From assembly GCA_027084065.1 (NCBI GenBank), contig JALWLR010000269.1, positions 1 through 35,597 of the forward strand: a DNA stretch of 35,597 nt. The letters run 5' to 3'. The translations under genes and the position numbers were made by a program. The stretch is from Helicobacteraceae bacterium. Its GTDB lineage: Bacteria; Campylobacterota; Campylobacteria; Campylobacterales; Sulfurimonadaceae. Under the pieces are notes generated by a model. That model was given only the letters and a program-made list of their open reading frames with translations. It ran no database searches and was not told the DNA's origin. Positions 1-32,968 of this stretch are shown here, in pieces (positions within the stretch are counted from its first letter, which is position 1; each line of letters begins with the position of its first letter).

Positions 1-351
<351 letters not shown>

Positions 352-682: not shown

Positions 683-703
683 AAATGATACCGGTTATCA
701 TTT
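683..703. promoter_or_regulatory. Inverted repeat AAATGATA-CCGGT-TATCATTT upstream of the porin/FMN_bind operon; candidate operator (Fur-box-like half sites)
   Basis: Perfect 8-bp arms (683-690 and 696-703) with a 5-nt spacer. The right arm contains the -10-like hexamer TATCAT (696-701). The repeat lies 70-90 nt upstream of the ATG at 773. The repeat is certain; its function is inferred. Confidence 0.35.
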
Positions 704-772
704 TTATTTTCTTTTAAGACTGTTCTCGGTAGCATTACGATGTTGATAACTAATTTCAAAAAGGACAAACAG

Positions 773-2044
773 ATGAAAAACACTTCTTTAAAAGTTGCTG
801 CTTTTGCAGCGGCTCTTCTAATGGAAGGAAACACACTCGGCGCTGCTACACTCGAAGAGCGCCTTGCTACTATGGAGCAGGAGCTTGCCACACTCAAAGA
901 GCATAATGAAGTACTTACCGAGGAGTTGACCTCCATGGAGAACGAAAAGTGGTACGCAAGTATAGATGTAACGAAATCACAAAGTGGTATGGGAGCTGCA
1001 GCATCAAAGGTTTACTACTCTGAAAACCCACTTTCTATAGGTGGATACGGCGAGTTTTACTACTCTGACAAAAATGATGTAAAGAATGCACGAAATGGAG
1101 AAAATTCTGCCATTACCGATACCTATCGTTTCGTACCATACATCGGATACAAATTTAGTGATAACATTATCCTCAACTCCGAAATAGAGTTCGAACATGG
1201 AGGGGAGGAAGTTGCAGTCGAGTTTCTCTATCTCGATTTTCTCATCAACAGATATGCCAATGTGCGTATAGGTCAGCAGCTAGTACCTATGGGTTTGATA
1301 AACCTGCGACATGAACCGACCCTCTTTCCTACCGTTTTGCGTCCGGATGTGGAAACCTATATCATACCATCTACATGGAACGAGATGGGAGCGAGTCTGT
1401 ATGGTTCAAACGACTCGTTCGAGTATCAAGTGGGAGTTATCAATGCTCTCAATGCGAACAACCAGGATACACGAAGTAATGGAAACAAGTGGCTGCGAAA
1501 TGCCAGAAACGGCTCTGCAGAAAAAACGGCAATGAATAAAGTGGGTATGGTTGCAAGAGCAGACTATACAGGAATCAACGGAGCGAAAATAGGCGGGAGT
1601 ATCTACTACGGAAATGCGTCTAATGTAAAGACCGGTCACGTTTCCGGAACCTCACTGCTTATTTATGAAGTGCACGGATCGTACAAGAAAAATGCTCTCT
1701 TTCTCAATGCTCTCTACAGCAGTGCTGCTCTTAGCGAAGCTGAGAAAATTGCACCAAACGCCACCAAGGCATCCGATGGTTTTTATGCCAATGCGGGGTA
1801 TAATTTCTTCAAGCCTCTTCATATAGAAATGCCTTTTTTTGTACAATACGAACAGTACAATCTCGCAAAAAAGACGGCCAACGGGACTGGAGAGAAAAAA
1901 GATGTCAAAAATACGACTGTCGGTTTGAACTACTTTCCACATGAACAGGTTGTCTTGAAGATGGAGTACAAGATCATAGACGACAAGAACATTCAAGATG
2001 AAAAAATGAGTGCTGTATCTTTTGGAGCGGGATTTATATTTTAA
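773..2044 (+). CDS. Outer-membrane beta-barrel (porin-like) protein with N-terminal signal peptide and periplasmic coiled-coil segment
   Basis: Start moved to the internal ATG at 773 (MKNTSLKVAAFAAALL... is a signal peptide; AAGGA lies upstream). Heptad-like ATLEERLATMEQELATLKEHNEVLTEELTSME follows. The rest alternates hydrophobic and polar residues and is rich in aromatics and Gly. The C-terminus ...SFGAGFIF ends in Phe, the classic OMP signature. Family not assigned (possibly OprO/P-like). Confidence 0.7.
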   Translation: MKNTSLKVAAFAAALLMEGNTLGAATLEERLATMEQELATLKEHNEVLTEELTSMENEKWYASIDVTKSQSGMGAAASKVYYSENPLSIGGYGEFYYSDKNDVKNARNGENSAITDTYRFVPYIGYKFSDNIILNSEIEFEHGGEEVAVEFLYLDFLINRYANVRIGQQLVPMGLINLRHEPTLFPTVLRPDVETYIIPSTWNEMGASLYGSNDSFEYQVGVINALNANNQDTRSNGNKWLRNARNGSAEKTAMNKVGMVARADYTGINGAKIGGSIYYGNASNVKTGHVSGTSLLIYEVHGSYKKNALFLNALYSSAALSEAEKIAPNATKASDGFYANAGYNFFKPLHIEMPFFVQYEQYNLAKKTANGTGEKKDVKNTTVGLNYFPHEQVVLKMEYKIIDDKNIQDEKMSAVSFGAGFIF

Positions 2045-2053
2045 AGGAGTATC

Positions 2054-2563
2054 ATGAAACTACTGCTTGCTGCACTTGTATCGACACTGCTGTTTGCTAA
2101 AGGGATCGATGTGGAGAGTCTCATAAAGGGGCTCTACCCGCATGCCAGAAGCGTAGAGAAGAAAAGTGCGATTCTGACACCCTCCCAAAGTCGGGTAATA
2201 GAAAAAAAAGCAGGAGCGAAACTGCCTTCACATCTTGTCCGGTACTATCGCATCGATAAAGGTAAAAAAGAGGTTTTCGCCATTGTCATCGTTCAAAAGG
2301 TCCGGACAAAAAAAGCGGCTGTTATGTACTTTATAGCTAATGGCGCTATAGAACATATCGAAATACTCGCATTTGGCGAGCCGCCGGAGTTCAAACCGAA
2401 AAATAACTGGCTTGAGCAGTTTTCAGGCAAAACAGACAAAGCTGGACTTAAAGTGGGTGAAGATATAGCGGCAAGCAGTGGTGCGACTCTGTCGGCAAAA
2501 AATGTCACAAAAGGTGCAAGGCTCGCTTTGACCATTTATGAAATAGTGAGGAGGAAGCAGTGA
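2054..2563 (+). CDS. Secreted FMN-binding (FMN_bind, NqrC/RnfG-like) domain protein carrying an ApbE flavinylation motif
   Basis: AAGGAG SD precedes the start; signal peptide MKLLLAALVSTLLFAKG. The C-terminal DIAASSGATLSAKNVTKGARLAL matches the [S/T]GA[T/S]-L-[S/T] flavinylation site of NqrC/RnfG. The predicted FMN-Thr is T145 (nt 2486-2488). Confidence 0.85.
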   Translation: MKLLLAALVSTLLFAKGIDVESLIKGLYPHARSVEKKSAILTPSQSRVIEKKAGAKLPSHLVRYYRIDKGKKEVFAIVIVQKVRTKKAAVMYFIANGAIEHIEILAFGEPPEFKPKNNWLEQFSGKTDKAGLKVGEDIAASSGATLSAKNVTKGARLALTIYEIVRRKQ

Positions 2564-3030
2564 AGTTCGTCGTATCGAAAAAACTCAACCGCACATCCCC
2601 ACTGTTTCCTGCTATAACGGCGATGCTGCTTTTTTTCATAGCTTCTCTCGGATTCAATGCCCTGTTTGTTCACACGAAAATATCGCTTGTTCCATCACAG
2701 GCTCTTGAGACGATATTTGGCAATGAAGAGGCGTTTGTCGAGCCGATCCTTTTTGAGGAGCTTGCCTTTATAGTCCATATGGAGTTCTTTTTCTTTATGC
2801 TTGTAACCCTTTTAAGCTTTTTTGTCCATTACAGACTTTTTGACAAGAAAAAAAGTACTACAAAACTGTTTCTTACTACTTTTTTTATACAAATCGCGCT
2901 GCTCTCGCTCCTCCTCTCCCCTTTTGGGGATAGTCTATTTGTCACTCTGTTTTTGCTTGGCTTTTACCTTACCAACTGCATACTTGTATATGTAATTGTG
3001 CACAATCTCGTAAGGATCTATTATGGATAA
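2560..3030 (+). CDS. Small integral membrane protein, ~4 TM helices, function unknown
   Basis: GTG start overlaps the upstream stop (GTGA) and is preceded by GAGGAGG. Four hydrophobic segments. His at 38, 73, 90 and 148, with an HM...VTL...H pattern in TM2. Confidence 0.6.
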   Translation: MKFVVSKKLNRTSPLFPAITAMLLFFIASLGFNALFVHTKISLVPSQALETIFGNEEAFVEPILFEELAFIVHMEFFFFMLVTLLSFFVHYRLFDKKKSTTKLFLTTFFIQIALLSLLLSPFGDSLFVTLFLLGFYLTNCILVYVIVHNLVRIYYG

Positions 3031-3430
3031 ACACTCTATAAATGTTTTGACAGGCATATCGGTACTTTTTACACTGGAGATATTTGCAACTGGGTATTTG
3101 AGTGTTTTGTGGGATGTGGGAAGCATAAAGGAGCTTTTGCACCACTTCGCATACAGTCTGGAGCGCTACATTGAAGTTGCCTTTTTTCATATGATGCCTA
3201 TGGGTGTCACTCTTTTTATCTATCTGCATCTGCTGCCGATTTTACAAATCAAGCGAAACATCAGTGTCGATGTCTTGATACTTTTTACTCTCCTGTTTCT
3301 CTCGCAAATTGGATGGTTCGTTCTGCATGCTCCGGTTTTGAAAATCCTCTCCTCTTTCGCTCTTTTTGGTGTCACTGTATATGAAATGGGTCTGCTGATA
3401 AAGCGACTCTATACTCTCCGCGTTCGATGA
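3023..3430 (+). CDS. Small integral membrane protein, ~4 TM helices, apparent paralogue of the preceding ORF
   Basis: The ATG overlaps the upstream stop (ATGGATAA). Four hydrophobic segments. TM2 carries H56-M...VTL...H69, echoing the previous ORF. The 3' end overlaps convergent apbE by 59 nt, so the true C-terminus is uncertain. Confidence 0.55.
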   Translation: MDKHSINVLTGISVLFTLEIFATGYLSVLWDVGSIKELLHHFAYSLERYIEVAFFHMMPMGVTLFIYLHLLPILQIKRNISVDVLILFTLLFLSQIGWFVLHAPVLKILSSFALFGVTVYEMGLLIKRLYTLRVR

Positions 3431-4292
3431 AGATTCTCCCGTTGGAAGTTATCATGATATAGCGCAAGCCGCTTTTTTTCAAAAAACCTCTTGCCTCTTT
3501 AAAGCCCATCGCAACTATCGCCGTCGCCATCGCATCGTAGAAGTAGTTGGGACGTTTGCCAAAAAGGGTCAATGAAACGATCTTGGTCTGCGCTTTTTTT
3601 GTATAGGGATTGATAATGTGGTTGTACTTTTGCTCTTTGACATACCTGCGGTAGATACCGCTTGTTGAGACAGTCAGCTCTTTGTCTGTGTCGTTGTAGA
3701 TTGTGGCAATGGAGCCATCACCAAAAGGGGAGTCCACAGACACTTGACAACGACCGAAACAGCGTATGTCACCACTGAGTGCGATGAGTGCATGCTCTAT
3801 ATGGCGCTTGCGAAAATATGCAGCCACCTCATCTACGGCATACCCTTTGGCGATACCGCCAAAATCAAGCTTTATATTTTCAGGTATGCACACCTTCTCG
3901 TTTGCAAGTGAGATGCGTAGATCCACACTTACATTTTTTAAAGGTTTTTTTGGTACTCTCTCCTTTTGACCAAAACGATATATATCTTTGGTTATGCGCC
4001 CTACTGCCACATTGAAATACCCTTCGGTGTTCTCGTTCATAAACAGAGACTTTTTGATAATGTCATAGAGGTACCGATCCGGTTTGACACACTTTTGTTC
4101 GTTGAGTTTATATACAAGTGAATCTTTTTTGAATGTCGATAGAGAACTTTCGATATCTCTAATAATCGCAAACGCCTTTTGTGTCTGCTGAAATGTAGGA
4201 GCTTCGATTGTGACATATGTCCCCATCAACATCGTCATGCGTTCGATGGCAAAGAGAGATAGACCAAACAGAAGAATCAAAAATTTTTTCAT
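3372..4292 (-). CDS. apbE: FAD:protein FMN transferase (ApbE family), periplasmic
   Basis: Signal peptide, then LMGTYVTIEA (the N-terminal MGT hallmark). Also GGIAKGYAVDEV, STSGIYRRY and HIINPYT motifs typical of ApbE. Confidence 0.9.
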   Translation of the reverse strand: MKKFLILLFGLSLFAIERMTMLMGTYVTIEAPTFQQTQKAFAIIRDIESSLSTFKKDSLVYKLNEQKCVKPDRYLYDIIKKSLFMNENTEGYFNVAVGRITKDIYRFGQKERVPKKPLKNVSVDLRISLANEKVCIPENIKLDFGGIAKGYAVDEVAAYFRKRHIEHALIALSGDIRCFGRCQVSVDSPFGDGSIATIYNDTDKELTVSTSGIYRRYVKEQKYNHIINPYTKKAQTKIVSLTLFGKRPNYFYDAMATAIVAMGFKEARGFLKKSGLRYIMITSNGRIFIERGEYRVALSADPFHIQ

Positions 4293-4378: not shown

Positions 4379-4573
4379 ATGTGTATCAATGTTGGAATGA
4401 CAGACAGAATCATCAGAGCAGTAGCAGGGGTAGGACTGATAGCTTACGGACTTGTTGTAAACAACTACATTGTAGCAGGCATCGGTGCTATTCCACTTCT
4501 GACTGCAATTATCGGCTTTTGCCCGTTTTATCCGCTCTTCAAGCTCAACACCGGCTGTCATAAAGAGTCGTAA
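4379..4573 (+). CDS. DUF2892 (YgaP-like transmembrane domain) family small membrane protein
   Basis: AAGGAG SD precedes the start. The N-terminal NVG..DRIIR motif, two hydrophobic helices and C-terminal GFCPFYPLF are the DUF2892 signature as I recall it. Confidence 0.75.
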   Translation: MCINVGMTDRIIRAVAGVGLIAYGLVVNNYIVAGIGAIPLLTAIIGFCPFYPLFKLNTGCHKES

Positions 4574-4582
4574 ACAAAAATG

Positions 4583-4608
4583 TGCTATACTCTCCCAAAA
4601 AGGGAGAG
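4583..4608 (+). promoter_or_regulatory. Extended -10 promoter (TGCTATACT, 4583-4591) overlapping the 5' arm of a hairpin (CTCTCCC-AAAAA-GGGAGAG, 4590-4608) that pairs the SD of the Crp/Fnr gene
   Basis: Perfect 7-bp GC-rich stem. The 3' arm GGGAGAG is the only SD-like element and lies 2 nt before the ATG at 4611. The predicted TSS (~4598) falls in the loop. Confidence 0.4.
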
Positions 4609-4610
4609 CT

Positions 4611-5228
4611 ATGGTACATTCCATCGAAGCGTTCGATTTTCTCGGCGATCTGAATGAAGAAGAAAAGAACTATCTCCAAAAACATCTCAAACCAGTTTCC
4701 ATTCCCAAAAACACCATACTCTTCTACCAAGGTGATACTACAAAAGAGATCCTACTTCTGACAAAAGGATCCATTCGACTCTATATCCAGGGTGAAGGCA
4801 TAAACGAAATAGAGCTCTATGTTCTCAACCCGATGGAGCAATGTATCGTCAATACAACTTCGGCTATCAATCTCACACCGGCTATCGGTTCTGCTCTCAC
4901 CCTCACCGATATCGAAGGGTACATGCTCGATAGAGAAATCGTACTAGAATTGATGAAAACGAATGAAAAGTATCAATCCTACATCTTTTCTCTCTTTACC
5001 GTTCGTCTCGATACGTTGGCGAAACTGCTTGAGAGTGTCAAATTCAAGCAGATGGACGAGCGGGTATTCGAGTACCTTCAAAACCAACAGAAAAACCCGT
5101 TCCATATAACACATGAGGAGATAGCTCAAGCACTCGGCTCGAATCGTGTCGTTATCTCCCGAGCACTCAAAAAGCTCGAAAGAGAAGGAATCCTCAAACT
5201 TTCGCGAGGAAGTATCACGATCTTATAA
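4611..5228 (+). CDS. Crp/Fnr family transcriptional regulator
   Basis: N-terminal cNMP-binding-like beta-roll (ILFYQGD..., GSIRLY). C-terminal HTH: THEEIAQALGSNRVVISRALKKLEREGILK. No N-terminal Cys cluster, so it is not a classical [4Fe-4S] FNR. Confidence 0.85.
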   Translation: MVHSIEAFDFLGDLNEEEKNYLQKHLKPVSIPKNTILFYQGDTTKEILLLTKGSIRLYIQGEGINEIELYVLNPMEQCIVNTTSAINLTPAIGSALTLTDIEGYMLDREIVLELMKTNEKYQSYIFSLFTVRLDTLAKLLESVKFKQMDERVFEYLQNQQKNPFHITHEEIAQALGSNRVVISRALKKLEREGILKLSRGSITIL

Positions 5229-5286: not shown

Positions 5287-5643
5287 ATGTGTCTGTTTTG
5301 TAAAATAGTCGAAAAAGAGATACCGGCAAACATCGAACTTGAAAACGAGGATTGCCTGGCATTTCACGATATAAATCCAAAAGCTCCTATACATATACTC
5401 GTAATTCCAAAAAAACATATAGATAGTTTTAACGATATAGACCCAGAAACTATGGCAAAACTCACACCATTCATGCAAGATGTCGCTAAACAATTAGGAA
5501 TAGATCAAACCGGCTACAGAGTTATAACAAATGTCGGTAGTGACGGTGGGCAAGAGGTTAAACATCTTCACTTCCATATTTTAGGTGGAGCAAAATTACA
5601 ATGGGGACACTTTACCGATGCAGACCCTAGAGAGTACCTCTAA
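5287..5643 (+). CDS. HIT family (histidine triad nucleotide-binding, Hint-like) protein
   Basis: CLFCKIV N-terminus and HLHFHILGG histidine-triad motif. Confidence 0.9.
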   Translation: MCLFCKIVEKEIPANIELENEDCLAFHDINPKAPIHILVIPKKHIDSFNDIDPETMAKLTPFMQDVAKQLGIDQTGYRVITNVGSDGGQEVKHLHFHILGGAKLQWGHFTDADPREYL

Positions 5644-6839
5644 TGAATAAATTCATACTCTTGTTAATCGGGGGAGCCTCTTTTCTTTTTGCATCGCAAT
5701 CCTCAGAGATGCAAAAGTACATGCAACAGCAAATGCAAGGATTTAAAAAACAAAAAGAGGATTTTGCCGATTATAAAAAAAAGGAACTAGAAGCTTTCAA
5801 TGCTTATAAGGAAGCACAAATGAAAGCATATGAAGAGTATAAAAAAGAGCTAGAAGCTTATTGGAAAAATCCAAAGCTCTCTACAAAAAAAGAGTGGGTG
5901 GAGTACTCAAAAGACAAAAAAACTCGTAGTGATGTTGATTTTGCAAATAACAAAATCACAGTTGAAACTGTTGCGAAATCAAAAAAAGAAGCTTTAAAAA
6001 AACTTCGACATACCTTAGCAAAAGTTACAACAATAGACACAAAACATGCTATAGAAAACGATCCGCTGGAACAGCGACTGGCAAAAATAAAAAAACCACC
6101 TAGTGTCGTAGATGCTCCAATAGACCCAAAGCCTATTCTAGCGCCGGTTATCTTTAAAAAACCGCCTTCAAAGAAAAAACTCAAAAAATTTGTAGTTTCA
6201 CATGTAAACACAAAAACAATACAGGCAAAACCATCACCAAAAGTCAAAGGTGCATTTGTCTATAAAGTAGTTGTAAATCTACCAAAAAATGCAACATATA
6301 AACGCTCAAAACTCTATTTAAATGAAGCAAAAGAAAATGCTGCAAGGCAAAAACTACCACTCTCACTCGTTTTTGCCATTATGCATACGGAAAGCTCATT
6401 CAATCCCAAAGCGACAAGTCATATTCCTGCATACGGACTGATGCAAATAGTCCCTCATACGGCTGGTGTAGATAGCTACAAGTATCTCTACCGAGTTAAA
6501 AAAATTCCTTCAAGCAGATACCTTTATAATTCGAAAAACAATATTAAACTCGGAAGCGCTTATTTGCATATACTTTACTATAGTTATCTTCGCCATATAA
6601 AAAATCCACAAAGTAGACTCTACTGCGCAATAGCCGCTTATAATACCGGTGCCGGAAATGTTGCATGGGCATTTACTCATACTTACAATCCAAAAAAAGC
6701 GGCTAAAATCATCAATAACCTAACGCCACAACAGGTATATGACCGCCTGCTAAAAGATCTAAAATATGATGAACCTAAACACTATCTCAAACGTGTTACA
6801 AAACGTATGCAGATATATCACAAAATTTATGAGGGGTAA
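5643..6839 (+). CDS. Lytic murein transglycosylase, MltC-like (SLT domain) with Lys-rich N-terminal region
   Basis: TAATG overlap with the HIT gene; signal peptide. Catalytic region AIMHTESSFNPKATSHIPAYGLMQIV and AAYNTGAGNV. Confidence 0.85.
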   Translation: MNKFILLLIGGASFLFASQSSEMQKYMQQQMQGFKKQKEDFADYKKKELEAFNAYKEAQMKAYEEYKKELEAYWKNPKLSTKKEWVEYSKDKKTRSDVDFANNKITVETVAKSKKEALKKLRHTLAKVTTIDTKHAIENDPLEQRLAKIKKPPSVVDAPIDPKPILAPVIFKKPPSKKKLKKFVVSHVNTKTIQAKPSPKVKGAFVYKVVVNLPKNATYKRSKLYLNEAKENAARQKLPLSLVFAIMHTESSFNPKATSHIPAYGLMQIVPHTAGVDSYKYLYRVKKIPSSRYLYNSKNNIKLGSAYLHILYYSYLRHIKNPQSRLYCAIAAYNTGAGNVAWAFTHTYNPKKAAKIINNLTPQQVYDRLLKDLKYDEPKHYLKRVTKRMQIYHKIYEG

Positions 6840-6858
6840 AATAGTACTTTTCCCCCTC

Positions 6859-7323
6859 TTAAGAAGGGCAACTCTCTATTTGGCCAAGGTCATAACTACC
6901 GCCACCGCCTGAAATAACTGTTTCATCTTCTTTTATAACTTTACCGTTATGAATGATTGTATAGCTGATCTTAACAGAGTCTCGAATAGTATTAATCGTC
7001 GAGCAGTATGTTTCAATAGAAGCCATTACCCAGCGTGCTGCCAAGATATCGTCAGCATCACTTTTAAAATCATATGTCAGATGAAGCTTATTAAATTTTT
7101 TTGGATTCTCTTCATTGCGAACGGCATCACCAGTTACACTTAGATCACTTACTGTTTTGCCTTGATTTTTCGGCAGTAGTTGCACATCGGTTGTCGAACA
7201 AGCTACAAGCCCCGCTAAAAAATATTCGATTGGAGAAATGACGGGACAATCTATAATAAAACTTGATTTTTCCGTCTTTGCTTCGAACTTCATCTCTTCA
7301 AGATGCGATACGGTTACTTTCAT
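6859..7323 (-). CDS. OsmC/Ohr family protein
   Basis: OsmC-like length and paired Cys contexts (LVACSTTDV and [10 protein letters not shown]). 4-nt overlap with the argH stop. Confidence 0.75.
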
Positions 7324-8747: not shown

Positions 8748-9422
8748 CTAATGCTGCGGTCTGTTTGGCGAAAAATTGACCTCTTTAAAGGCATCTATCG
8801 TTTCATGCGATCTTTTTTGGCGTAATTTTTTCATTACATTTACAGGAATATCGTGAACAAATTTCTCTTCTTTGATAATTTTTCCTTTTTTATCATACCA
8901 CCGCTGTTTTCCTTCTTTATAGTTATTCTGATAAAGCACATCACTATAGAGGTGGCCTTCGTATGTATACTCTTTTTGTACTCCCTCTTTTTTTCCTTTT
9001 TTATACGGTACGCTCAAAGCCAATTTTCCATTATCGTAAAATTCTTTGTAAATTCCCTCTCGTTTATCATTTTTATAAAACTGTTTTGCTTTTACTTTTC
9101 CGTTTGGAAAAAATGTTATCTCCCATCCTTCCAGCTCTCCATTCTTATAGTGAAGAACCTTGAGCTTGTTCCCCTCTTTATCCCACCATCTCATTTCGCC
9201 GTCACGCTTATTATTGACATAATTTACTCTATAAGCAACACTTCCTTCCATATAATAAACCTTTTGCTCTCCATGCCTGATGCCTTTGCTCGTTTTTGTT
9301 CTTGTTCCATCTATATAATGTGTCTCCGATTTTAAAGCGCCGTTGGAAAAATACTCTTTGACAAGCTCTCCAAACAACGATGAAGATGTAAAAAGCAAAA
9401 TTAAAAGAAGTGTTTGTCTCAT
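8748..9422 (-). CDS. Secreted MORN-repeat-variant (YwqK-like) protein
   Basis: Repeated G..K.E..Y.NGK / Y..G...G motifs. Start moved to M22 (MRQTLLLILLFTSSSLFG is a signal peptide). The longer ORF would run through the upstream terminator hairpin. Confidence 0.7.
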   Translation of the reverse strand: MRQTLLLILLFTSSSLFGELVKEYFSNGALKSETHYIDGTRTKTSKGIRHGEQKVYYMEGSVAYRVNYVNNKRDGEMRWWDKEGNKLKVLHYKNGELEGWEITFFPNGKVKAKQFYKNDKREGIYKEFYDNGKLALSVPYKKGKKEGVQKEYTYEGHLYSDVLYQNNYKEGKQRWYDKKGKIIKEEKFVHDIPVNVMKKLRQKRSHETIDAFKEVNFSPNRPQH

Positions 9423-9458
9423 TGTGTACAACCTTTGTTTTTTTCTTTTAGCAATCTT

Positions 9459-9504
9459 TAAAAAAAACTCCGAAAAGAAAAACACACTCCTGCATGCAGG
9501 AGTG
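9459..9504 (-). terminator. Rho-independent terminator downstream of the cytochrome gene
   Basis: 20-nt perfect palindrome CACTCCTGCATGCAGGAGTG (9485-9504), giving an 8-bp stem and CATG loop. On the minus strand it is followed by TGTTTTTCTTTTCGGAGTTTTTTTT. It starts 8 nt after the stop at 9512. Confidence 0.75.
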
Positions 9505-9511
9505 ATTTATG

Positions 9512-11893
9512 TTACTTCCAGCCTTTTTTTACAACTGTAGAAGCTTTTTTGTATGGGAACTTTTCTACAAGCTCTTTGACACTGAGTTTTTGATCACCCT
9601 CTCTCATGAAGTGTGCAAGCGTAACCGCTGCCCAGTAGTCATTTGCATATTTTGTTCCATTTAATTGAATAGGAACACCGTTTTTGTTTACTGTATGACA
9701 TGCCGCACAGGTTACAGGACCACTATATTTTCCATCTGGTGAATACTGCAATGCTTGTTCATGTGTCGTTACATCAACACTTCTCTCTTTTCCATCATAA
9801 CGTGTAGAGTACAAACCATGTGTCGATTCATGACAAGACTGACATGCAATATTGCCATGAGCTTTTGAATATCTATAAAGTGAATATTTATTCGGCAAAT
9901 CGATAGGGAAATACTTTCCACCGGTTTCTTGTTCTACAAACGGTGCTATATGACAATCGGCACAATGAGGTTCACTTGCCGAAAGCCACCAGTCATTACC
10001 GCCAGAAGCTGCTGAATACGGAACTTTTCCACCTTTTGGATGATTCCAAGGTTTCAAATCTAACTTTCCGTCTTTACCGACATTTTTCACAAGAGTGGCA
10101 GAAGTATGCTCACTATAATATTTTAACACTTCATTATCACCTGTTACTTTTGGATCTGCCAAAGAAGCAAATTTCTTTTCATCTCCACCTGCAACAGCTT
10201 GAATAATCTCTTTAATAGATTTATTTCTCAGTGTTCTACCCTCTTGTGTACTATCATGCTTTATATCATCATAATTCTGGAATGCCTGAGCGACTTTTGT
10301 ATGACAGTTTGTACAATAAAGACCTCGAAGCTTTTTGACTGTTTTTCCATGTTCATCTTTCATAGAGACATTTTTAAGCTGCCATTTTCCATACTCGTTA
10401 AGGAAGAAAGGCGGTTTTGCATCCGGGTTGGAGTGGGCATCACGTCTTACATAACAACCTCCTCCGGATTTTCTTATATCTCCCGTTGAAAATCTTCCTT
10501 CTCCATAGCGTGTTGTAACTCTGTATGGATTGGAGTCATCGTTCATATTAGGATTTTGGAAGTGTGTCGGGTGACATGACTGACACGCTTGACTTCTACC
10601 CGCGCCGTCAGGCATAGGAACAATTCCAAGGTGAAAAGAGTGGATAGCTTCTGAAAGAGGCTGTGCTTTTACCGTTTTATAACCAGTAGCTGTTGGACGT
10701 GGCTCCTGAAGGTTTCCGCTGACATTGTCTCCATGGCAATCAGCACAGTTGACCATCCCCACTTTTCCTAAACGGTTCCCTGAAGCTTTAGGATTGTAAT
10801 CGCTTAAAAACGTTGTTCCGTGATGTGAATCATGTAAAGAGAGAATATTGATACTTGCTTCTGCAAGTCTTGCCATATATTCACTCTCATCCGGATAACT
10901 TTTCCAGTAGTTGTATTCCTGATCACTAAATTTCAACCCCTCATCACGTGCCATTTGTGCAGCTTTTCCGTTTCTTGAGTGGCATGCGTAACAGTTTGGA
11001 ATATCGACCGGGTTTGTTCCAAAGTAGGAAAATGCATGTCCATCCTTAGCACGCAGCGCTTTTCCAGTTCTGTCATGAATCTCTACAGTCGAGTACTGAA
11101 ACGGCTGAAAATCTTTTTGCGTAACACTTCGAATAGTTCCCCTTCTCGTACTATCGTTAAATGCCGTTAGCGGTAATCCAAGAGCATCCCACACGTGAGA
11201 AGCCGTCAGTTTCAGCTTGACGTTTTTAACGGCAGGAACGAGTGTATCGGTCATTACGATATTACCGCCCTCTTTTCCAGCATACTCCAAATAACCACCC
11301 GAAAGTGGCTTCCCACTTGGACCTGCATCAATATTTACCGGGACTTGTAATCCTATGCGGAGTCTGTCTTTGTCTGTTGCACCAGAAGGAATTGTTCCTT
11401 CGAGATCTTTATATATAAAAAGGTGTGTCCAAACGTAGTTAGCGACATTGTCTCCAGCAGAGTCTAGGTGCCCGTCCATGTCAGCATCTTTACGTACCGA
11501 CCAGTATTTCATTTTGTTTCCTTCACTGTATGTATTGTCTTTAACATAGTAGTAAAGTTTTACATCATCATCAGGAGAGAGCAGTTTTGGTAGCTTGCCA
11601 TCTCCACCAGAACGTATAGCCTGTGCCTGAATGGAGTTGTAAGGAGGAATCACACAACAATAGTCCATAGAGAACCCGACACAGTGCATGCCAAGTTCAT
11701 AGTTAACAAATACATTGTACTTGTTTACAGGCTCATATCCTGTAACCTTGTTTCCGTTTTCATCTTCTCCGATAAACTTTTTGAGTTTATCTAAACCAAA
11801 CGGAGGATGCGTGTCATACGCTGAAGCAGAAGAAACGCTCAAAGAGAGCATCGCAATAGCTGCAGCCGTTGAAGCGATTATTTTTCGTTTCAT
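9512..11893 (-). CDS. Secreted multiheme c-type cytochrome: seven CXXCH motifs and a ~275-aa heme-free N-terminal domain
   Basis: AAGGAA SD precedes the start; signal peptide ends ...SASA/YD. CXXCH motifs begin at residues 301 (CYACH), 383 (CADCH), 437 (CQSCH), 527 (CTNCH), 644 (CADCH), 684 (CQSCH) and 729 (CAACH). Extra Cys at 71, 79, 80 and 480. Subfamily not recognised. Confidence 0.9.
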   Translation of the reverse strand: MKRKIIASTAAAIAMLSLSVSSASAYDTHPPFGLDKLKKFIGEDENGNKVTGYEPVNKYNVFVNYELGMHCVGFSMDYCCVIPPYNSIQAQAIRSGGDGKLPKLLSPDDDVKLYYYVKDNTYSEGNKMKYWSVRKDADMDGHLDSAGDNVANYVWTHLFIYKDLEGTIPSGATDKDRLRIGLQVPVNIDAGPSGKPLSGGYLEYAGKEGGNIVMTDTLVPAVKNVKLKLTASHVWDALGLPLTAFNDSTRRGTIRSVTQKDFQPFQYSTVEIHDRTGKALRAKDGHAFSYFGTNPVDIPNCYACHSRNGKAAQMARDEGLKFSDQEYNYWKSYPDESEYMARLAEASINILSLHDSHHGTTFLSDYNPKASGNRLGKVGMVNCADCHGDNVSGNLQEPRPTATGYKTVKAQPLSEAIHSFHLGIVPMPDGAGRSQACQSCHPTHFQNPNMNDDSNPYRVTTRYGEGRFSTGDIRKSGGGCYVRRDAHSNPDAKPPFFLNEYGKWQLKNVSMKDEHGKTVKKLRGLYCTNCHTKVAQAFQNYDDIKHDSTQEGRTLRNKSIKEIIQAVAGGDEKKFASLADPKVTGDNEVLKYYSEHTSATLVKNVGKDGKLDLKPWNHPKGGKVPYSAASGGNDWWLSASEPHCADCHIAPFVEQETGGKYFPIDLPNKYSLYRYSKAHGNIACQSCHESTHGLYSTRYDGKERSVDVTTHEQALQYSPDGKYSGPVTCAACHTVNKNGVPIQLNGTKYANDYWAAVTLAHFMREGDQKLSVKELVEKFPYKKASTVVKKGWK

Positions 11894-12582: not shown

Positions 12583-13838
12583 TGCAGCCAGTCTCGGTTT
12601 CTACTTTAACAAATCAAATCAAATCCCTTCTAGAAACAAGTTTCAATCGTATTGTGGTAGAAGGAGAGCTCTCACGAATTACCTACCATAACTCCGGACA
12701 CATATATTTTACACTCAAAGATGAAAATGCGACAATCCGTGCCGTAATGTTTAGAGGCAACGCTGCAAAACTTCGCTTTCGACTAGAAGAAGGGCTAAAA
12801 GTGATTATCGATGCGGCAATAACCCTTTATACACCCCGAGGAGAGTATCAGCTCAACTGTTTTAGCATCGAGCCCTCAGGTCAAGGCGCCCTTGCTTACG
12901 CATTTGAGCAGCTTAAAAACAAACTGTTGCAAAAAGGCTACTTCGAGCAGTCACGAAAAAAACCGCTACCCAAGTTTCCAAAAAAAATCGCTCTTATCAC
13001 GTCAGCCACCGGTGCCGCACTGCAAGATATGCTTCGCATTGCAAACAGCCGGTATCCTTTATGTGAAATAGATATCTACGATGTTCTCGTACAAGGTGAA
13101 AATGCGGCAAACTCCATAGCTTCAGCACTCACATATGCCGACTCACTACAGATTTACGATGCAATCGTCATAGGACGCGGAGGCGGCAGTATAGAAGATT
13201 TGTGGGCATTTAACGAAGAGGTTCTCGCAGATGCCATTTATAAAGCAAAAACACCCGTTGTTTCTGCAGTCGGGCATGAAATAGATACTGTTATCAGCGA
13301 CTTTGTAGCAGATGTACGCGCCGCTACTCCAAGTAATGCAATAGAGCTACTTTTACCGGATAAAACGGAGTTAATGCTTTATTTGGACTCATTAATGGAA
13401 CAGCTCCAAAGACGAACCATGCACATAGTAACACTCAAGCAGCAAGAACTTCAACACATGCAAGAGGCATTTAAACAGCACTCATTTGAAAAGAAAATAG
13501 CGCAGCAAGAGGAAGGTATCATACAACTACGCCAGCGGTTCGAACAATCCGTTGCATTTGTATTTTCTCGTTTTACAGAATCTTTACACTACATGCAAAA
13601 AGAGCTGCCGCGAAACATTCATAATGTTTTAGAGCGAAAAAATGCTCAACTCTCCTCACTCAATGAAGCATTTAGTGCCTCCAATCCAAAACTCAAATCC
13701 AAAAAAGGCTTTGCACAAATTGTTCGAGATGGAAAAATTATCGATTTGGCATCTCTTGAACCAAATCAAGAGTTTGAAGCACAAACTTCCGATATAATAG
13801 TCACTGCAAAAGTTTTAGATAAAAGGAATATTTTATGA
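12582..13838 (+). CDS. xseA: Exodeoxyribonuclease VII large subunit
   Basis: VEGELSRITYHNSGHIYFTLKDENATIRAVMF (OB fold) and ITSATGAALQDMLRI. TAATG overlap with acpS. Confidence 0.95.
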   Translation: MQPVSVSTLTNQIKSLLETSFNRIVVEGELSRITYHNSGHIYFTLKDENATIRAVMFRGNAAKLRFRLEEGLKVIIDAAITLYTPRGEYQLNCFSIEPSGQGALAYAFEQLKNKLLQKGYFEQSRKKPLPKFPKKIALITSATGAALQDMLRIANSRYPLCEIDIYDVLVQGENAANSIASALTYADSLQIYDAIVIGRGGGSIEDLWAFNEEVLADAIYKAKTPVVSAVGHEIDTVISDFVADVRAATPSNAIELLLPDKTELMLYLDSLMEQLQRRTMHIVTLKQQELQHMQEAFKQHSFEKKIAQQEEGIIQLRQRFEQSVAFVFSRFTESLHYMQKELPRNIHNVLERKNAQLSSLNEAFSASNPKLKSKKGFAQIVRDGKIIDLASLEPNQEFEAQTSDIIVTAKVLDKRNIL

Positions 13839-14443
13839 ACTATCCATCGTTTTTCAACAGTATTGAACCCATCTCTTTAGAAGATCCGCTTGCCGATATA
13901 CTCGGTGCCTTTGAAGAGGGACGTTATAGCATAAGCTATGTGGAAGTGGTTAAAGGTGCGGGGCACAGCTGTCCTACAGTTGCCGGTGCTTATTTGATGA
14001 CTCAATATGCACTTAAAGCTCTCTACCCCAATGAACCGGCTATTCGTGGAGATATTGAAGTCTTTTTCAAAGAGCAGCTGCAAGAGGGAGTAGCAGGAGT
14101 TATTGGCAATGTCGTCTCCTACATTACCGGTGCAACGGATCAAAGTGGTTTTAAAGGTCTTGGAGGCAAATTCGCACGCCACTCTTTAATGCACTTCGAA
14201 AGTGAGATCGGCTCTGCTAGTGCACGTTTTAGCTCTTGCTCAAATAACAAAAGCGTAGATGTTTTTTACGATCCATCATCTATCAAACCTCATCCCGACA
14301 TGCAGCCTTTAATGCAGCTTATTATGCAAAATAAAGCTACTCCGGAACAAAAACGACAATTTGGCCTACTTTGGCAGGAGCGTGTTAAGAACATCTTCGC
14401 CCATGCCGATGAAGTCATTCGTCTTCAGCCGGTAAACAGCTAA
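13835..14443 (+). CDS. Conserved hypothetical protein, possibly FmdE-like fold
   Basis: ATGA overlap with xseA. GAGHSCPTVAGAYLM resembles the FmdE-family H-x-C-P-G motif. No other recognisable motifs. Confidence 0.5.
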   Translation: MNYPSFFNSIEPISLEDPLADILGAFEEGRYSISYVEVVKGAGHSCPTVAGAYLMTQYALKALYPNEPAIRGDIEVFFKEQLQEGVAGVIGNVVSYITGATDQSGFKGLGGKFARHSLMHFESEIGSASARFSSCSNNKSVDVFYDPSSIKPHPDMQPLMQLIMQNKATPEQKRQFGLLWQERVKNIFAHADEVIRLQPVNS

Positions 14444-30270: not shown

Positions 30271-31501
30271 GATTTTTAAAGAGCTCAACAGGATTTAAAT
30301 GATAGCTTTTTTGTGTCGCTTCAAATACGAGCTCTTTATCGACGCGACCTATCGTATAGCCTTTTTTAATGCGCTTGCCTTTTTTAATCGTCGGCGCGAT
30401 TTTTGAGAGGTTTGCATATATCGTATGGATGCCGTTTTTATGCTCGACAATAACGACATTGTCAAGCATTGCCGTTTTGTCTGCATAAATGACTTTACCG
30501 TTTAATATATTTCTAACAATTGCATTGCGGCGTTTTGGTTTCATCGAAATGGACTCATTGAAGACTTTTATACCGTAAATAGGGTCTTTGTAAGTGCCAT
30601 AACGTTTGGTTATGGTATATGCTTTAAGTGGTGCGATCGTTTTACGCCCTCTGTAGCGTTTTGTTTTTATACTTTGGTAACTCTGACCGTACTGTTTGAC
30701 TTTAGGAAGATTCTTCGACGAGATGCTTGCAGTTGCATTGAAGGCCTTTTGGCGTGCTTGCTGTTCCTTTTTTCTTCGCGCTTCATCGATTTTTATAATA
30801 TTGAGTTTCGAAAGCACTCGTTTAAGTTCGTCTTGTTTTTTCAAAAGACGCTTAAGAGCCTTTTTGTAAGAGGCTTTAGCTACTTTGAGCCTTTTTAGAT
30901 CCTCTTTATTCTTTTTTTGCACGGTAAGCAGCCTCTTGCGCTTGGCATCTATGGAGCGGATCGATGCCTGCAAACGGCGTGACTGTGAAGAAAGCTCTGC
31001 AATCTCCTCTTTAGTGCGCAAAAACTTTTTGTTAAGTTCTTTGATACGCTCTTTATAGTTTTTGAGCTTGGCTTTTAAAATCTCCAGCTCTATGACCGAA
31101 TCAGGTGTTTTGGCATAGGCATCGTCAAGTAAAATAGATAGTGAAACACTTTTTGCGATGGAAAACGCTAACTTTTGCTCAAGTTCATCCGATTGTTTAC
31201 GAAGCTGATTCTCTTTTTCAAGCAGTTGACTCAACTGCTTTTTACCGACATCATAACTTTTAGATTTCTCCGCAAGCTCCTTTTCAAGCTGCTCTATGAG
31301 CTTTTGCTGCTTTTTGATCTCTCTTTTTTGTCGGATAATCTCTTCGGCGGTTTGTGCCATTTTTTTATTGAGACGTTTGTAGTTTTTTGAAAAAGTATGC
31401 AGTGTCTGAGAGGTCTTTTTTATTTTTCTCTCTACACTGCTGGCAGCATGAAGAGAAACAGTAAGCACAACTACAAAAAAGAGTGAAAAAAATCGCATCA
31501 C
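30266..31501 (-). CDS. EnvC-like murein hydrolase activator: signal peptide, long coiled coil, degenerate LytM (M23) domain
   Basis: ~250 aa of Lys/Glu/Gln heptad-rich sequence. The C-terminal M23-like fold reads VVIVEHKNGIHTIYANL. By-eye alignment puts FNESISM where HxxxD is expected and ELVFE where HLHFE is expected. Confidence 0.8.
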   Translation of the reverse strand: MMRFFSLFFVVVLTVSLHAASSVERKIKKTSQTLHTFSKNYKRLNKKMAQTAEEIIRQKREIKKQQKLIEQLEKELAEKSKSYDVGKKQLSQLLEKENQLRKQSDELEQKLAFSIAKSVSLSILLDDAYAKTPDSVIELEILKAKLKNYKERIKELNKKFLRTKEEIAELSSQSRRLQASIRSIDAKRKRLLTVQKKNKEDLKRLKVAKASYKKALKRLLKKQDELKRVLSKLNIIKIDEARRKKEQQARQKAFNATASISSKNLPKVKQYGQSYQSIKTKRYRGRKTIAPLKAYTITKRYGTYKDPIYGIKVFNESISMKPKRRNAIVRNILNGKVIYADKTAMLDNVVIVEHKNGIHTIYANLSKIAPTIKKGKRIKKGYTIGRVDKELVFEATQKSYHLNPVELFKNQ

Positions 31502-32310
31502 ACCTCTTCTTTATGGGTAAAAACTATCGTACTTGCAAGTATAAGCGACAAAAAGAGTGCCGCAAAGAAAAGCAGCGGAAAATCTTTGAAAACATCGAAA
31601 ATAACAATCTTTATACCGATGGCATCCAGTTTTGAAAGCAGCCACCTGCTATTTGCAATGAAACCAAAAAGAATCATGACCAATATCGAAGAGATAACGG
31701 CATCGACGATGGCAAGTCGAAAAAGTACGGCAGAACTTAACCACTTCGGAGCACCGAAGAGTCCCATAATGTTCATTCGCTCTTTATGCTTGTATTGCCA
31801 GATACGTAGCTCTTTGCTTATAAGCAGGAGTGTAATGACAAAAACCACCAAGCTAAAGACAGTTACGACACTCTTAAACAGAAGTAGCAGTTTGTAGGTA
31901 AGATCATGGCTCTCTTTGAAATCCTCCACACTCTTTATCCCCTCTATTGCATGGAGACTCTTTTTAAGTTTTGTTATCTCCTTTGAAGTCGGATACTTTT
32001 TGAGTGTGATTTTATAAAAATGAGGCAGAGTCGTTAGCAGCAGACGCATATTTTTTTCACTGATATTTTTGTCTATTTTTCTAACGGCGCTCTCAAGCGC
32101 AATCTCCGTAATATTTTCTACATAAGGAAGCCGTTTTTTCAAAGCTGCCAAATCAAGCTTTTTATCGCTCACAACTACGAGCGAATAGTGGCTTTTAAGA
32201 GTCTCCTCATATGCCGCAAGCGCTCTGTCGGTTATGAAAAAAGTCTGAATGGCAAAAAGAATACTTACAAGTGCTACAATAAGGGAGAGATGGTTTTTAA
32301 TTGACTTCAT
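31498..32310 (-). CDS. ftsX: FtsX-like cell-division ABC permease
   Basis: TM1, periplasmic loop and 3 TM topology, ~270 aa. The gene overlaps ftsE (14 nt) and envC-like (4 nt). Confidence 0.8.
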   Translation of the reverse strand: MKSIKNHLSLIVALVSILFAIQTFFITDRALAAYEETLKSHYSLVVVSDKKLDLAALKKRLPYVENITEIALESAVRKIDKNISEKNMRLLLTTLPHFYKITLKKYPTSKEITKLKKSLHAIEGIKSVEDFKESHDLTYKLLLLFKSVVTVFSLVVFVITLLLISKELRIWQYKHKERMNIMGLFGAPKWLSSAVLFRLAIVDAVISSILVMILFGFIANSRWLLSKLDAIGIKIVIFDVFKDFPLLFFAALFLSLILASTIVFTHKEEV

Positions 32311-32968
32311 GCAAATTTCCGTACTCTATATGATAATGCTTATAATCCACATTCAGTGTCTGCGGTATACGGTGTGTAACGACGACAACCGTCGTTTTAA
32401 GCTGCTCATTCGCACCTGCAAGCAAATTCCAAATAAGCTGTGCCGAGTAGTCATCTAGGTTCCCTGTTGGTTCATCCGCCAAAATCATGATGGGATTGTG
32501 TGCCAAAGCCCGTGCCATCGCCACACGCTGCTGCTCTCCACCACTTAACTCCAGCGGATATTTCCCCGATTGATGTTTCAGGCGGACATGCTTCAAAAGC
32601 GTCTCTACCTGTGTCTCCGTTACGCTTTTTTCGTATCCGTTGATTATAAGCGGCAAAGAGATATTTTTATCTATAGTCCATTCATTGATGAGTTTGTAGT
32701 CTTGAAAGACGATGCCTAAGTGCCTGCGAAGCAGATTGAGCTTACTTCTACTCACACCGTTTAGCTCAACCCCTCCTACAATCAAACTCCCCTCAACCGG
32801 CGAAAGCGCTCCAAAAAGTGACTTCAAGAGTGTAGATTTACCGCTACCGCTTGCTCCGGTTATAAAAACGAAACTCCCGCTCTCTATAGAAAAGGAGGCA
32901 CGCTTGATGATCATTTCATCTTTTTCATATGCCAAAGAGAGGTCACTTGCAACAATGACTTTATCCAT
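32297..32968 (-). CDS. ftsE: FtsE-like cell-division ABC ATPase
   Basis: Walker [10 protein letters not shown], signature LSGGEQQRV and Walker [12 protein letters not shown]. Start set at ATG 32968 (MDKVIV...), which overlaps the trmB stop as ATGGATAA. Confidence 0.9.

Follow-up and report, generated by a model that had tools for sequence, protein, structure and literature searches.

A conserved porin, flavoprotein and membrane-protein module behind Fur-type operators in Campylobacterota, a candidate periplasmic ferric reductase

What might an outer-membrane porin, a flavoprotein and two small membrane proteins without known relatives do together? The question is raised by a five-gene cluster near one end of a contig from a Helicobacteraceae bacterium of the family Sulfurimonadaceae (GenBank assembly GCA_027084065.1, contig JALWLR010000269.1). 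We call the whole 35,597-nt stretch that was analysed the window. The cluster encodes the porin, a secreted protein with an FMN_bind domain, two proteins with four transmembrane (TM) helices each, called TM1 and TM2 here, and, on the opposite strand, an ApbE flavin transferase (Table 1). The initial annotation of the window, made from the sequence alone, proposed a flavin-based electron-transfer module and offered two versions of it, a trans-outer-membrane conduit similar in logic to porin-cytochrome complexes and a periplasmic reductase, for instance of ferric iron. The second version gains strong new support from Fur-type operators upstream of the cluster and from feoB and fur genes adjacent to it in relatives. 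With moderate confidence, we read the locus as a candidate Fur-controlled periplasmic ferric-reductase and iron-acquisition module, whose electrons would not be wired to the outside.

Table 1. Features of the module in the window, and loci of relatives (L numbers) that encode the variant membrane protein
Feature	Position	Strand	Description
Distal Fur-box-like site	686..700		7-1-7 inverted repeat TGATACCGGTTATCA; 3 mismatches to TGATAATnATTATCA
Proximal Fur-box-like site	744..758		7-1-7 site TGATAACTAATTTCA; 3 mismatches; just upstream of the ribosome-binding site
Porin	773-2044	+	ORF; 423 aa
FMN_bind protein	2054-2563	+	ORF; 169 aa; secreted; predicted ApbE substrate
TM1	2560-3030	+	ORF, GTG start; 156 aa; four-TM inner-membrane protein
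TM2	3023-3430	+	ORF; 135 aa; four-TM; TM1 paralogue
ApbE flavin transferase	3372-4292	-	ORF; 306 aa; secreted; convergent
Third-variant four-TM protein	L050 7453-7962; L048 2277-2798; L104, L123, L130, L134		

The open reading frames (ORFs) and their couplings are as initially described. A 9-nt gap (aggagtatc), which contains an AGGAG ribosome-binding site, separates the porin stop codon from the ATG of the FMN_bind gene; the FMN_bind and TM1 genes overlap by GTGA (2560-2563), and TM1 and TM2 by ATGGATAA (3023-3030). The five-gene arrangement is not a chance one: it recurs in dozens of genomes and in differing contexts. The order porin, FMN_bind, TM1, TM2 and convergent ApbE is kept in the contigs that carry FMN_bind homologues (52-96% identity) and persists where the flanking genes differ. 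In L003, for example, the module lies beside rpsL, rpsG and fusA, with the porin gene split by a frameshift. A one-genome-per-species scan gave 40 loci, nearly all from Sulfurovum or other Campylobacterota, with one from Acidobacteriota and one from Gemmatimonadales, and scanning these loci with hidden Markov models (HMMs) revealed the full module wherever the contig permitted. Distant TM1 homologues also belong to this module, one of them in the complete Hydrogenimonas sp. genome (AP019005.1), and ApbE is part of it at essentially all complete loci.

The porin gene might have been a generic one that happens to lie next to the others. Metagenomes were queried with the porin alignment, with no use of the FMN_bind protein; the search gave at least 477 relatives, and 80 loci were examined. 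The FMN_bind gene adjoins the porin gene in 67 of the 69 metagenomic loci with room for it, and the membrane partner comes next in 45 of 47. From these counts, the barrel belongs to the module as an integral and almost obligate component, as the initial annotation had supposed.

What controls the module is suggested by the DNA in front of the porin gene. The Fur box was taken as the 7-1-7 repeat TGATAATnATTATCA (as defined in PMC11353095), and matches with at most two mismatches were counted. Of the 30 genome loci, 26 carry a site in front of the porin gene, and the upstream regions hold 41 matches in 4.8 kb, against 11 in the remaining 361 kb of the loci, a 280-fold enrichment. The independent metagenome loci gave a similar picture, with 61 matches in 13 kb upstream of the porin gene and 9 in 355 kb elsewhere (185-fold); paired sites occur in 31 of 59 of them, including nearly all of the low-GC ones, and several metagenome sites are perfect consensus boxes. 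When only the low-GC loci of both sets are considered, the 410 bp around the porin start hold 116 matches in 35 kb, and other intergenic DNA 9 in 50 kb (18-fold). Alignment of the upstream regions of relatives indicates that the boxes are paired at a constant spacing of about 57 bp and that the proximal one overlaps a likely -10 element, GATAAT. The two boxes of the window, with three mismatches each, are 58 bp apart and stand at positions homologous to those of the relatives' sites, which have at most two. The operon thus lies behind Fur-type operators, which makes it a candidate for control by Fur. A simple sigma-70 scan found no promoter-like site upstream of the window's porin gene, and shuffled sequence gave at least as high a count as the region did (7).

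Genes of iron metabolism adjoin the module in some relatives. The feoB gene is next to it in L012, L062, L066 and L103. In L012 the same paired boxes precede feoB; in L062 and L066 the feoB and porin genes diverge from a common intergenic region that holds three or four Fur-like boxes; and in L103 (6853-9251) a fur-family gene, itself preceded by a Fur-like box, comes directly after the module, and feoB comes after that. A Fur-family gene stands directly beside the module in L103, L111, L112, L117, L121, L123 and L127, six of which belong to high-GC lineages. Of the Fur, PerR and Zur models, those of Fur give these adjacent regulators their highest scores, which are below the equivalog cutoffs.

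Elsewhere in the window, the best Fur-box-like match outside the operon (TGATAATGCTTATAA, 2 mismatches) lies at 32331-32345, where two ORFs of the minus strand (31498-32310 and 32297-33001) meet.

Is the proposed flavoprotein likely to be flavinylated? Pfam matches confirmed the identities of the FMN_bind protein (PF04205, E=7e-6, 27 bits against a cutoff of 22) and of ApbE (PF02424, E=1.5e-53). Nucleotides 2477-2497 encode SGATLSA, and the codon of Thr145, which had been singled out as the ApbE target, occupies 2486-2488. S142, G143, A144 and T145 are unchanged across 14 homologues, and SGAT is also kept in the distant ones. This fits the ApbE target motif [S/T]GA[S/T] (PMC8238504), and Thr145 is the predicted flavinylation site of the protein. 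The homologue alignment additionally contains an invariant basic patch, QKVRTKK. The N-terminus resembles a cleavable signal peptide with no lipobox Cys, and that of ApbE (MKKFLILLFGLSLFA) is signal-peptide-like as well. The nearest solved relatives of the FMN_bind protein are RnfG subunits (9eri_G, E=8e-5), and the SGAT threonine is common to it and to RnfG/NqrC. However, RnfG and NqrC are held in their pumps by an N-terminal TM anchor, whereas the FMN_bind protein here appears to be secreted and soluble, and neither RnfD, NqrB nor other pump subunits are encoded in or near the module.

The two small membrane proteins were more difficult to place. Neither had a Pfam-A or NCBIfam match in scans of the window's proteins; precomputed annotation assigns TM1 orthologues to a recent family, PF27139 (Aq_1264_TM). 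The TM1 family is rare, with 42 representative clusters among 1.84 billion proteins. Its AlphaFold2 model (pLDDT 87) has four TM helices, a short periplasmic helix and a hairpin with the motif GNEExFxEP, and a Foldseek search of the PDB gave no fold match to it with E below 1. MAPEG enzymes, which appeared at E of 1 or more and a TM-score of about 0.45, are generic four-helix membrane bundles and were set aside as non-specific. For TM2, the four-helix topology was deduced from hydropathy and from homology to TM1 by way of the single-gene form described below; its single-sequence fold (pLDDT 81, pTM 0.47) had over-long helices, was judged unfit for a fold search and was not used. The initial annotation thus had the topology of both proteins right. 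Throughout the family, G54, H73 and R92 of TM1 are invariant, and F59 and P62 nearly so; the invariant residues of TM2 are G24, H56, H69 and K107, with E51 nearly so. H56 and H69 are 13 residues apart on a single helix (H-x12-H), with H56 placed toward its periplasmic end and H69 toward its cytoplasmic end by hydropathy and the positive-inside rule.

The initial annotation missed that TM1 and TM2 are related to each other. Direct comparison with BLASTP and hhalign detected nothing. However, many loci outside Campylobacterota have one gene of about 165-180 codons after FMN_bind, whose product matches both the TM1 and the TM2 HMMs and aligns over its full length to TM1 (hhalign 98.8%, E=9e-17); the comparison with TM2 is almost as strong (hhalign 98.5%, E=2.5e-15). 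Since both are homologous to this single-gene form, TM1 and TM2 are, on these alignments, diverged paralogues of one four-TM gene that is still single in other phyla. In the single-gene form the loop motif reads GSEExFxxP, and helix b bears H-x-H-x12-H. Of these, TM1 retains the loop motif and the first His (H73), with a conserved Asp or Glu in place of the second, and TM2 retains the second and third His (H56 and H69). The His and loop residues were thus divided between the two proteins after duplication, and the functional unit is therefore probably a dimer, a homodimer ancestrally and a heterodimer in the window. A small-multidrug-resistance-type pair was also considered for TM1 and TM2 and was rejected, with no PF00893 match and no Glu conserved in TM1 family-wide.

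A third variant of the module bears on what this dimer may do. In loci of the Gemmatimonadales and Acidobacteriota type, an unrelated four-TM protein (hhalign <1%) replaces TM1 and TM2 after FMN_bind. It has no Pfam match, its conserved motifs are H-x17-H, H-x13-H and NHPLQP, and it looks like a member of an undescribed di-haem b-type cytochrome family. A role of TM1 and TM2 as electron conduit is suggested because a di-haem-type protein occupies their position in other phyla, because feoB is separately present in some loci, and because the described flavinylated systems all pair the flavoprotein with a membrane electron-transfer component (PMC8238504). TM1 and TM2 thus probably supply electrons to the flavoprotein.

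What the porin might contribute depends on its type. It has a signal peptide, an N-terminal coiled-coil segment (approximately residues 24-58) and then a beta-barrel. The segment of about 35 residues, which the initial annotation had described as a coiled coil, is heptad-rich and kept in all orthologues, but its matches to coiled-coil families are weak. The window porin has no Pfam-A or NCBIfam match, Porin_O_P included, and comparison with PDB sequences (phmmer and profile) returned coiled-coil noise and no barrel. In contrast to the window copy, 12 of the 16 aligned family members match Porin_O_P (PF07396) at E up to 0.01, and two exceed its gathering score (36.3 and 27.1 bits against 20.9). 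Judged by these matches, the porin is probably a divergent Porin_O_P-type member, with the window copy too divergent to score. It is similar in size to OprP and OprO of this type. Unlike them, the window porin is below detection by the family model, bears the N-terminal coiled coil, belongs to a family with unusually many invariant Glu, His, Arg and Trp residues, and is obligately linked to a flavoprotein gene and to Fur sites. In being a protein of about 420 residues encoded in an apbE cluster, it also resembles DUF3570 (PMC8238504), which is flavinylated. That identity was ruled out by the lack of an SGAT motif and of a Pfam match; the porin sequence contains no [S/T]GA[S/T] motif at all, and from this the porin is not itself a flavinylation substrate.

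The barrel is central to the other version offered by the initial annotation, a porin-flavoprotein conduit across the outer membrane for extracellular electron transfer (EET), in the manner of MtrAB. The barrel and flavoprotein genes are tightly linked, the periplasmic coiled coil of the porin could tether partners, and a gene for a seven-haem cytochrome lies about 5 kb away in the window. However, judging from known porin sizes, a Porin_O_P-type barrel of about 420 residues is too small to sheath a folded FMN_bind domain of 15 kDa, and nothing indicates that the flavoprotein lies within it; the cluster encodes no surface-exposed redox partner and no CxxCH motifs; and the porin is neither a DUF3570 protein nor endowed with a flavinylation motif of its own. 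Moreover, one Sulfurovum species, represented by a metagenome-assembled genome (MAG; L032), has lost the porin and kept FMN_bind, TM1, TM2 and ApbE intact. There, the stretch 5541-6913 holds a 44-codon remnant of the porin C-terminus (6779-6913), and an opposite-strand gene for a 376-aa multihaem cytochrome is in the porin's place. Fur control and feoB also suit assimilation better than respiration. We therefore no longer favour the conduit proposed initially, and regard it as very improbable.

A channel of this type could instead pass flavins. The porin would then pass FMN (flavin mononucleotide) or FAD (flavin adenine dinucleotide), which are anions bearing phosphate or pyrophosphate, and TM1 and TM2 would be exporters, either of FAD for use by ApbE or of flavins for the extracellular reduction of Fe(III), by analogy with EetB and FmnA of Listeria. 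The porin family has phosphate- and pyrophosphate-selective porins among its relatives, and iron-regulated flavin release is known in some bacteria. In addition, ApbE needs periplasmic FAD, and the Listeria locus encodes a dedicated exporter for it (PMC9973259). However, TM1 and TM2 show no similarity to EetB (PF07456), ECF, MATE or other transporter families, their intramembrane His pattern and its di-haem-like replacement point to redox chemistry, and most Gram-negative ApbE systems do without a dedicated exporter gene. Such a role in flavin trafficking seems improbable to us.

The parallel with EetA and EetB that the initial annotation drew is not supported. As in the flavin-based EET locus of Listeria (FmnB, PplA, Ndh2, EetA/EetB and DmkA/B), an ApbE-type transferase, an extracytosolic FMN_bind substrate and two small membrane-protein genes are found together. 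EetB is now described as an ECF-S-like FAD-export subunit (PF07456), and deletion of eetA had no EET phenotype (PMC9973259), whereas TM1 and TM2 have no PF07456 match at E up to 1 and are related to neither EetA nor EetB, and the parallel was dropped. The module differs from the Listeria locus further in the FMN_bind protein, which has no lipobox, unlike the lipoprotein PplA, in having no Ndh2 or demethylmenaquinone genes, and in its Gram-negative setting with a porin.

In the ferric-reductase reading, the parts would act as follows. Iron limitation would lift repression by Fur. The porin, as a trimer, would let small and possibly anionic Fe(III) species into the periplasm, where ApbE would have placed FMN on Thr145 of the FMN_bind protein. 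The TM1/TM2 heterodimer, or the homodimer of the single-gene product in other phyla, would draw electrons from the quinol pool of the membrane and hand them to the flavoprotein, on a path through a His-ligated cofactor with His ligands toward both membrane faces. The flavoprotein would then reduce Fe(III) to Fe(II), and a FeoB protein encoded at another locus would probably import the Fe(II). Docking between TM1 and the flavoprotein may involve the acidic periplasmic loop of the former (GNEExFxEP) and the basic patch of the latter (QKVRTKK).

Several findings weigh against this reading. In the window alone, Fur-box matches are no commoner than expected by chance (4 against 3.4), the two operator sites are degenerate, with three mismatches each, and there is no fur or feoB gene within the window; by themselves the boxes of the window are weak, and they become convincing only through positional homology with those of relatives. 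As for the electron donor, the module contains no NAD-binding, Ndh2 or quinone-biosynthesis gene at any locus examined, which extends what was initially noted for this cluster, and no quinone site was identifiable in the module. Porin_O_P porins are classically anion channels, for phosphate, and the Sulfurovum species of L032 does without the porin. The heterodimer has a single copy of each conserved His, with the second-position His replaced by Asp or Glu in TM1, and its residues seem to fit a metal site at least as well as a bis-His haem. Fur, PerR and Zur boxes resemble one another, and in L070 the box pair precedes a cytochrome c peroxidase gene. Finally, the flanks of the module in Sulfurovum carry genes of thiol redox and oxidative stress, namely those of a DUF255 thioredoxin-like protein, DsbD, MsrAB and cytochrome c peroxidase.

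The points on the heterodimer lead to another possible function. A non-haem metal site or a permease role is an alternative suggested by the single copies of the His residues and by the carboxylate that TM1 has at the position of the second His. TM1 and TM2 might be a permease for Fe(II) or another metal, with the flavoprotein reducing Fe(III) by means of electrons from an unlinked donor, and with the His residues and carboxylates at the periplasmic end of TM-b forming the metal entry. By hydropathy and the positive-inside rule, H73 and E/D75 of TM1, E51 and H56 of TM2 and the GNEExFxEP loop are near the periplasmic ends of the TM-b helices, with H69 deeper. Replacement of the second His of the ancestral H-x-H by a carboxylate in TM1 would preserve metal ligation and not haem ligation. 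In addition, asymmetric heterodimers of small four-TM paralogues are typical of small transporters, to none of which homology was detected. Nevertheless, a permease would leave the flavoprotein with no electron source in the module, unlike every class in PMC8238504; feoB, adjacent in four loci, speaks for an Fe(II) importer distinct from TM1 and TM2; the protein that takes their place in other phyla has the four-His pattern of a di-haem type; and TM1 and TM2 show no similarity to known metal permease families. We consider the permease rather unlikely.

The resemblance among boxes and the Sulfurovum flanks raise a different possibility, that of a periplasmic function in oxidative stress or redox repair, under a PerR-like regulator of the Fur family, and not in iron uptake. 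The module would feed electrons to periplasmic repair or peroxide-detoxifying enzymes, or would be an iron-sparing device in which a flavin replaces cytochromes; interchange of flavinylated proteins and cytochromes is documented (PMC8238504). To the Sulfurovum genes already named, which include MsrA-MsrB and a di-haem cytochrome c peroxidase, can be added those of multihaem cytochromes, and an OsmC gene near the module in the window's own clade, joined by PMSR in close relatives. The operator in front of the peroxidase gene of L070 is in line with this function, as is the likeness of PerR and Fur boxes. However, the neighbours found in Sulfurovum are confined to that genus and do not occur in the other module-bearing lineages. 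The right half-sites of the boxes read ATTATCA, which is of the Fur type, the PerR type being ATTATAA, by a rule derived from the Fur, PerR and Zur boxes of Bacillus subtilis. In addition, a box pair precedes feoB, the adjacent regulators score best as Fur, and a dedicated porin is hard to account for in redox repair. A stress function is therefore unlikely in our view, and reductive iron acquisition remains the reading that we prefer.

How does such a module compare with the known flavinylated systems? ApbE-flavinylated clusters with PepSY-like, MsrQ-like or P19 proteins have been tied to iron reduction and to Fur repression (PMC8238504). Among them are the PepSY-like/DUF2271/ApbE clusters, which have a link to iron reduction, are repressed by Fur in Shewanella and Caulobacter and in some cases include an outer-membrane transporter (Meheust et al. 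2021, PMC8238504). Like these clusters, with their FoxB-type haem b reductases, the module combines an ApbE-flavinylated secreted protein, as predicted here, with a small His-bearing inner-membrane partner. However, the flavinylated domain is FMN_bind instead of DUF2271, TM1 and TM2 match neither PF03929 nor PF16357, and the outer-membrane partner is a diffusion porin and not a TonB-dependent receptor.

Clusters of MsrQ-like, FMN_bind and ApbE proteins, some with VIT1, have been proposed to be assimilatory iron reductases (PMC8238504). With these and with the DUF4405/FezC cytochromes (Huang et al., PMC11334425), the module would share an FMN_bind flavoprotein served by a His-ligated transmembrane electron carrier, and His pairs about 13 residues apart on a TM helix. 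In contrast to them, TM1 and TM2 have no PF01794 or DUF4405 match and no NAD-binding domain, each of the two paralogous subunits has four TM helices where the others are six-TM proteins, the heterodimer has only three family-conserved His residues, and there is a dedicated porin. Altogether, TM1 and TM2 match none of the described membrane classes compared (NapH-like, MsrQ-like, PepSY-like, DsbD, NQR/RNF-like and DUF4405).

By these comparisons, the new elements are a membrane-protein family without known relatives and an obligately linked porin, and the overall kind is that of the known flavinylated iron-reductase systems. The module is undescribed in the literature searched, and the supplementary tables of PMC8238504, in their text form, have no Sulfurovum, Hydrogenimonas or Porin_O_P entry. 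A bolder proposal, which we put forward tentatively and hold to be possible but doubtful, is that the module constitutes a reductive iron-uptake route independent of TonB and siderophores that spans the Gram-negative envelope, with Fe(III) delivered by the porin, a flavinylated reductase and TM1/TM2 as a new redox class, homodimeric in most phyla and heterodimeric in Campylobacterota, in which H-x-H...H would form a new cofactor site, for haem b or non-haem iron. Its parts may even make up one complex, which would dock through the coiled coil of the porin, the acidic loop of TM1 and the basic patch of the flavoprotein.

Flavinylated extracytosolic reductases have been recognised as a branch of bacterial redox biology only recently, and most of this branch is still uncharacterised. 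The hosts of this module include Sulfurovum and Hydrogenimonas, dominant chemolithoautotrophs of vents and sulfidic habitats, as well as MAGs assigned to Gemmatimonadales and Acidobacteriota. The module is a concrete candidate for the enzymology of flavin-linked ferric reduction in Campylobacterota, and it may be a common siderophore-free route to iron in environmental Gram-negative bacteria. The paired Fur sites offer a regulatory handle, by which the iron hypothesis is directly testable.

Some details of the locus concern how the genes are expressed. An alternative ATG for the porin is found at 740, but a start there is unlikely because it would lie inside the second operator-like site and because an AAAGGA ribosome-binding site precedes 773. 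At the other end of the operon, TM2 and ApbE converge and share 59 bp at their 3' ends (3372-3430). No terminator can fit between the two genes, and their transcription may be subject to interference or to antisense effects. A convergent TM2/ApbE overlap is seen again in many relatives. Upstream, positions 1-351 (minus strand) hold the 5' end of a bacterial 16S rRNA gene truncated by the edge of the window (Rfam RF00177, 307 bits); the porin operon therefore diverges from an rrn promoter region, with about 420 bp between the divergent units.

The flanks of the module vary among relatives. In Sulfurovum, a gene for a 671-aa DUF255/Thioredox_DsbH protein lies downstream of ApbE on the same strand, followed by DsbD, throughout the genus (e.g. 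L022, 9.3-14.2 kb), and the other side of the module carries MsrA-MsrB fusions, a di-haem cytochrome c peroxidase, DUF1538 and a two-component system. In the window, a gene for a 64-aa YgaP-like TM protein and one for a Crp/Fnr-family regulator (4379-5228, plus strand) stand between the ApbE and HIT genes. The pair also occurs in L004 and L005 and is missing from the otherwise syntenic L001 and L008; it is a small insertion. The seven-haem cytochrome c mentioned above is a secreted protein of 793 residues (9512-11893, minus strand); its sequence contains seven CxxCH motifs and weakly matches Cytochrome_C7 and domains II/IV of MtrC/MtrF. Just downstream of its gene, on the same strand, a MORN-repeat protein is encoded (8748-9485, minus strand), and this region is syntenic in L001. 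Further along, a 202-aa FmdE-domain protein (PF02663) is encoded at 13835-14443 (plus strand) beside the gene for the large subunit of exonuclease VII and is unrelated to the module.

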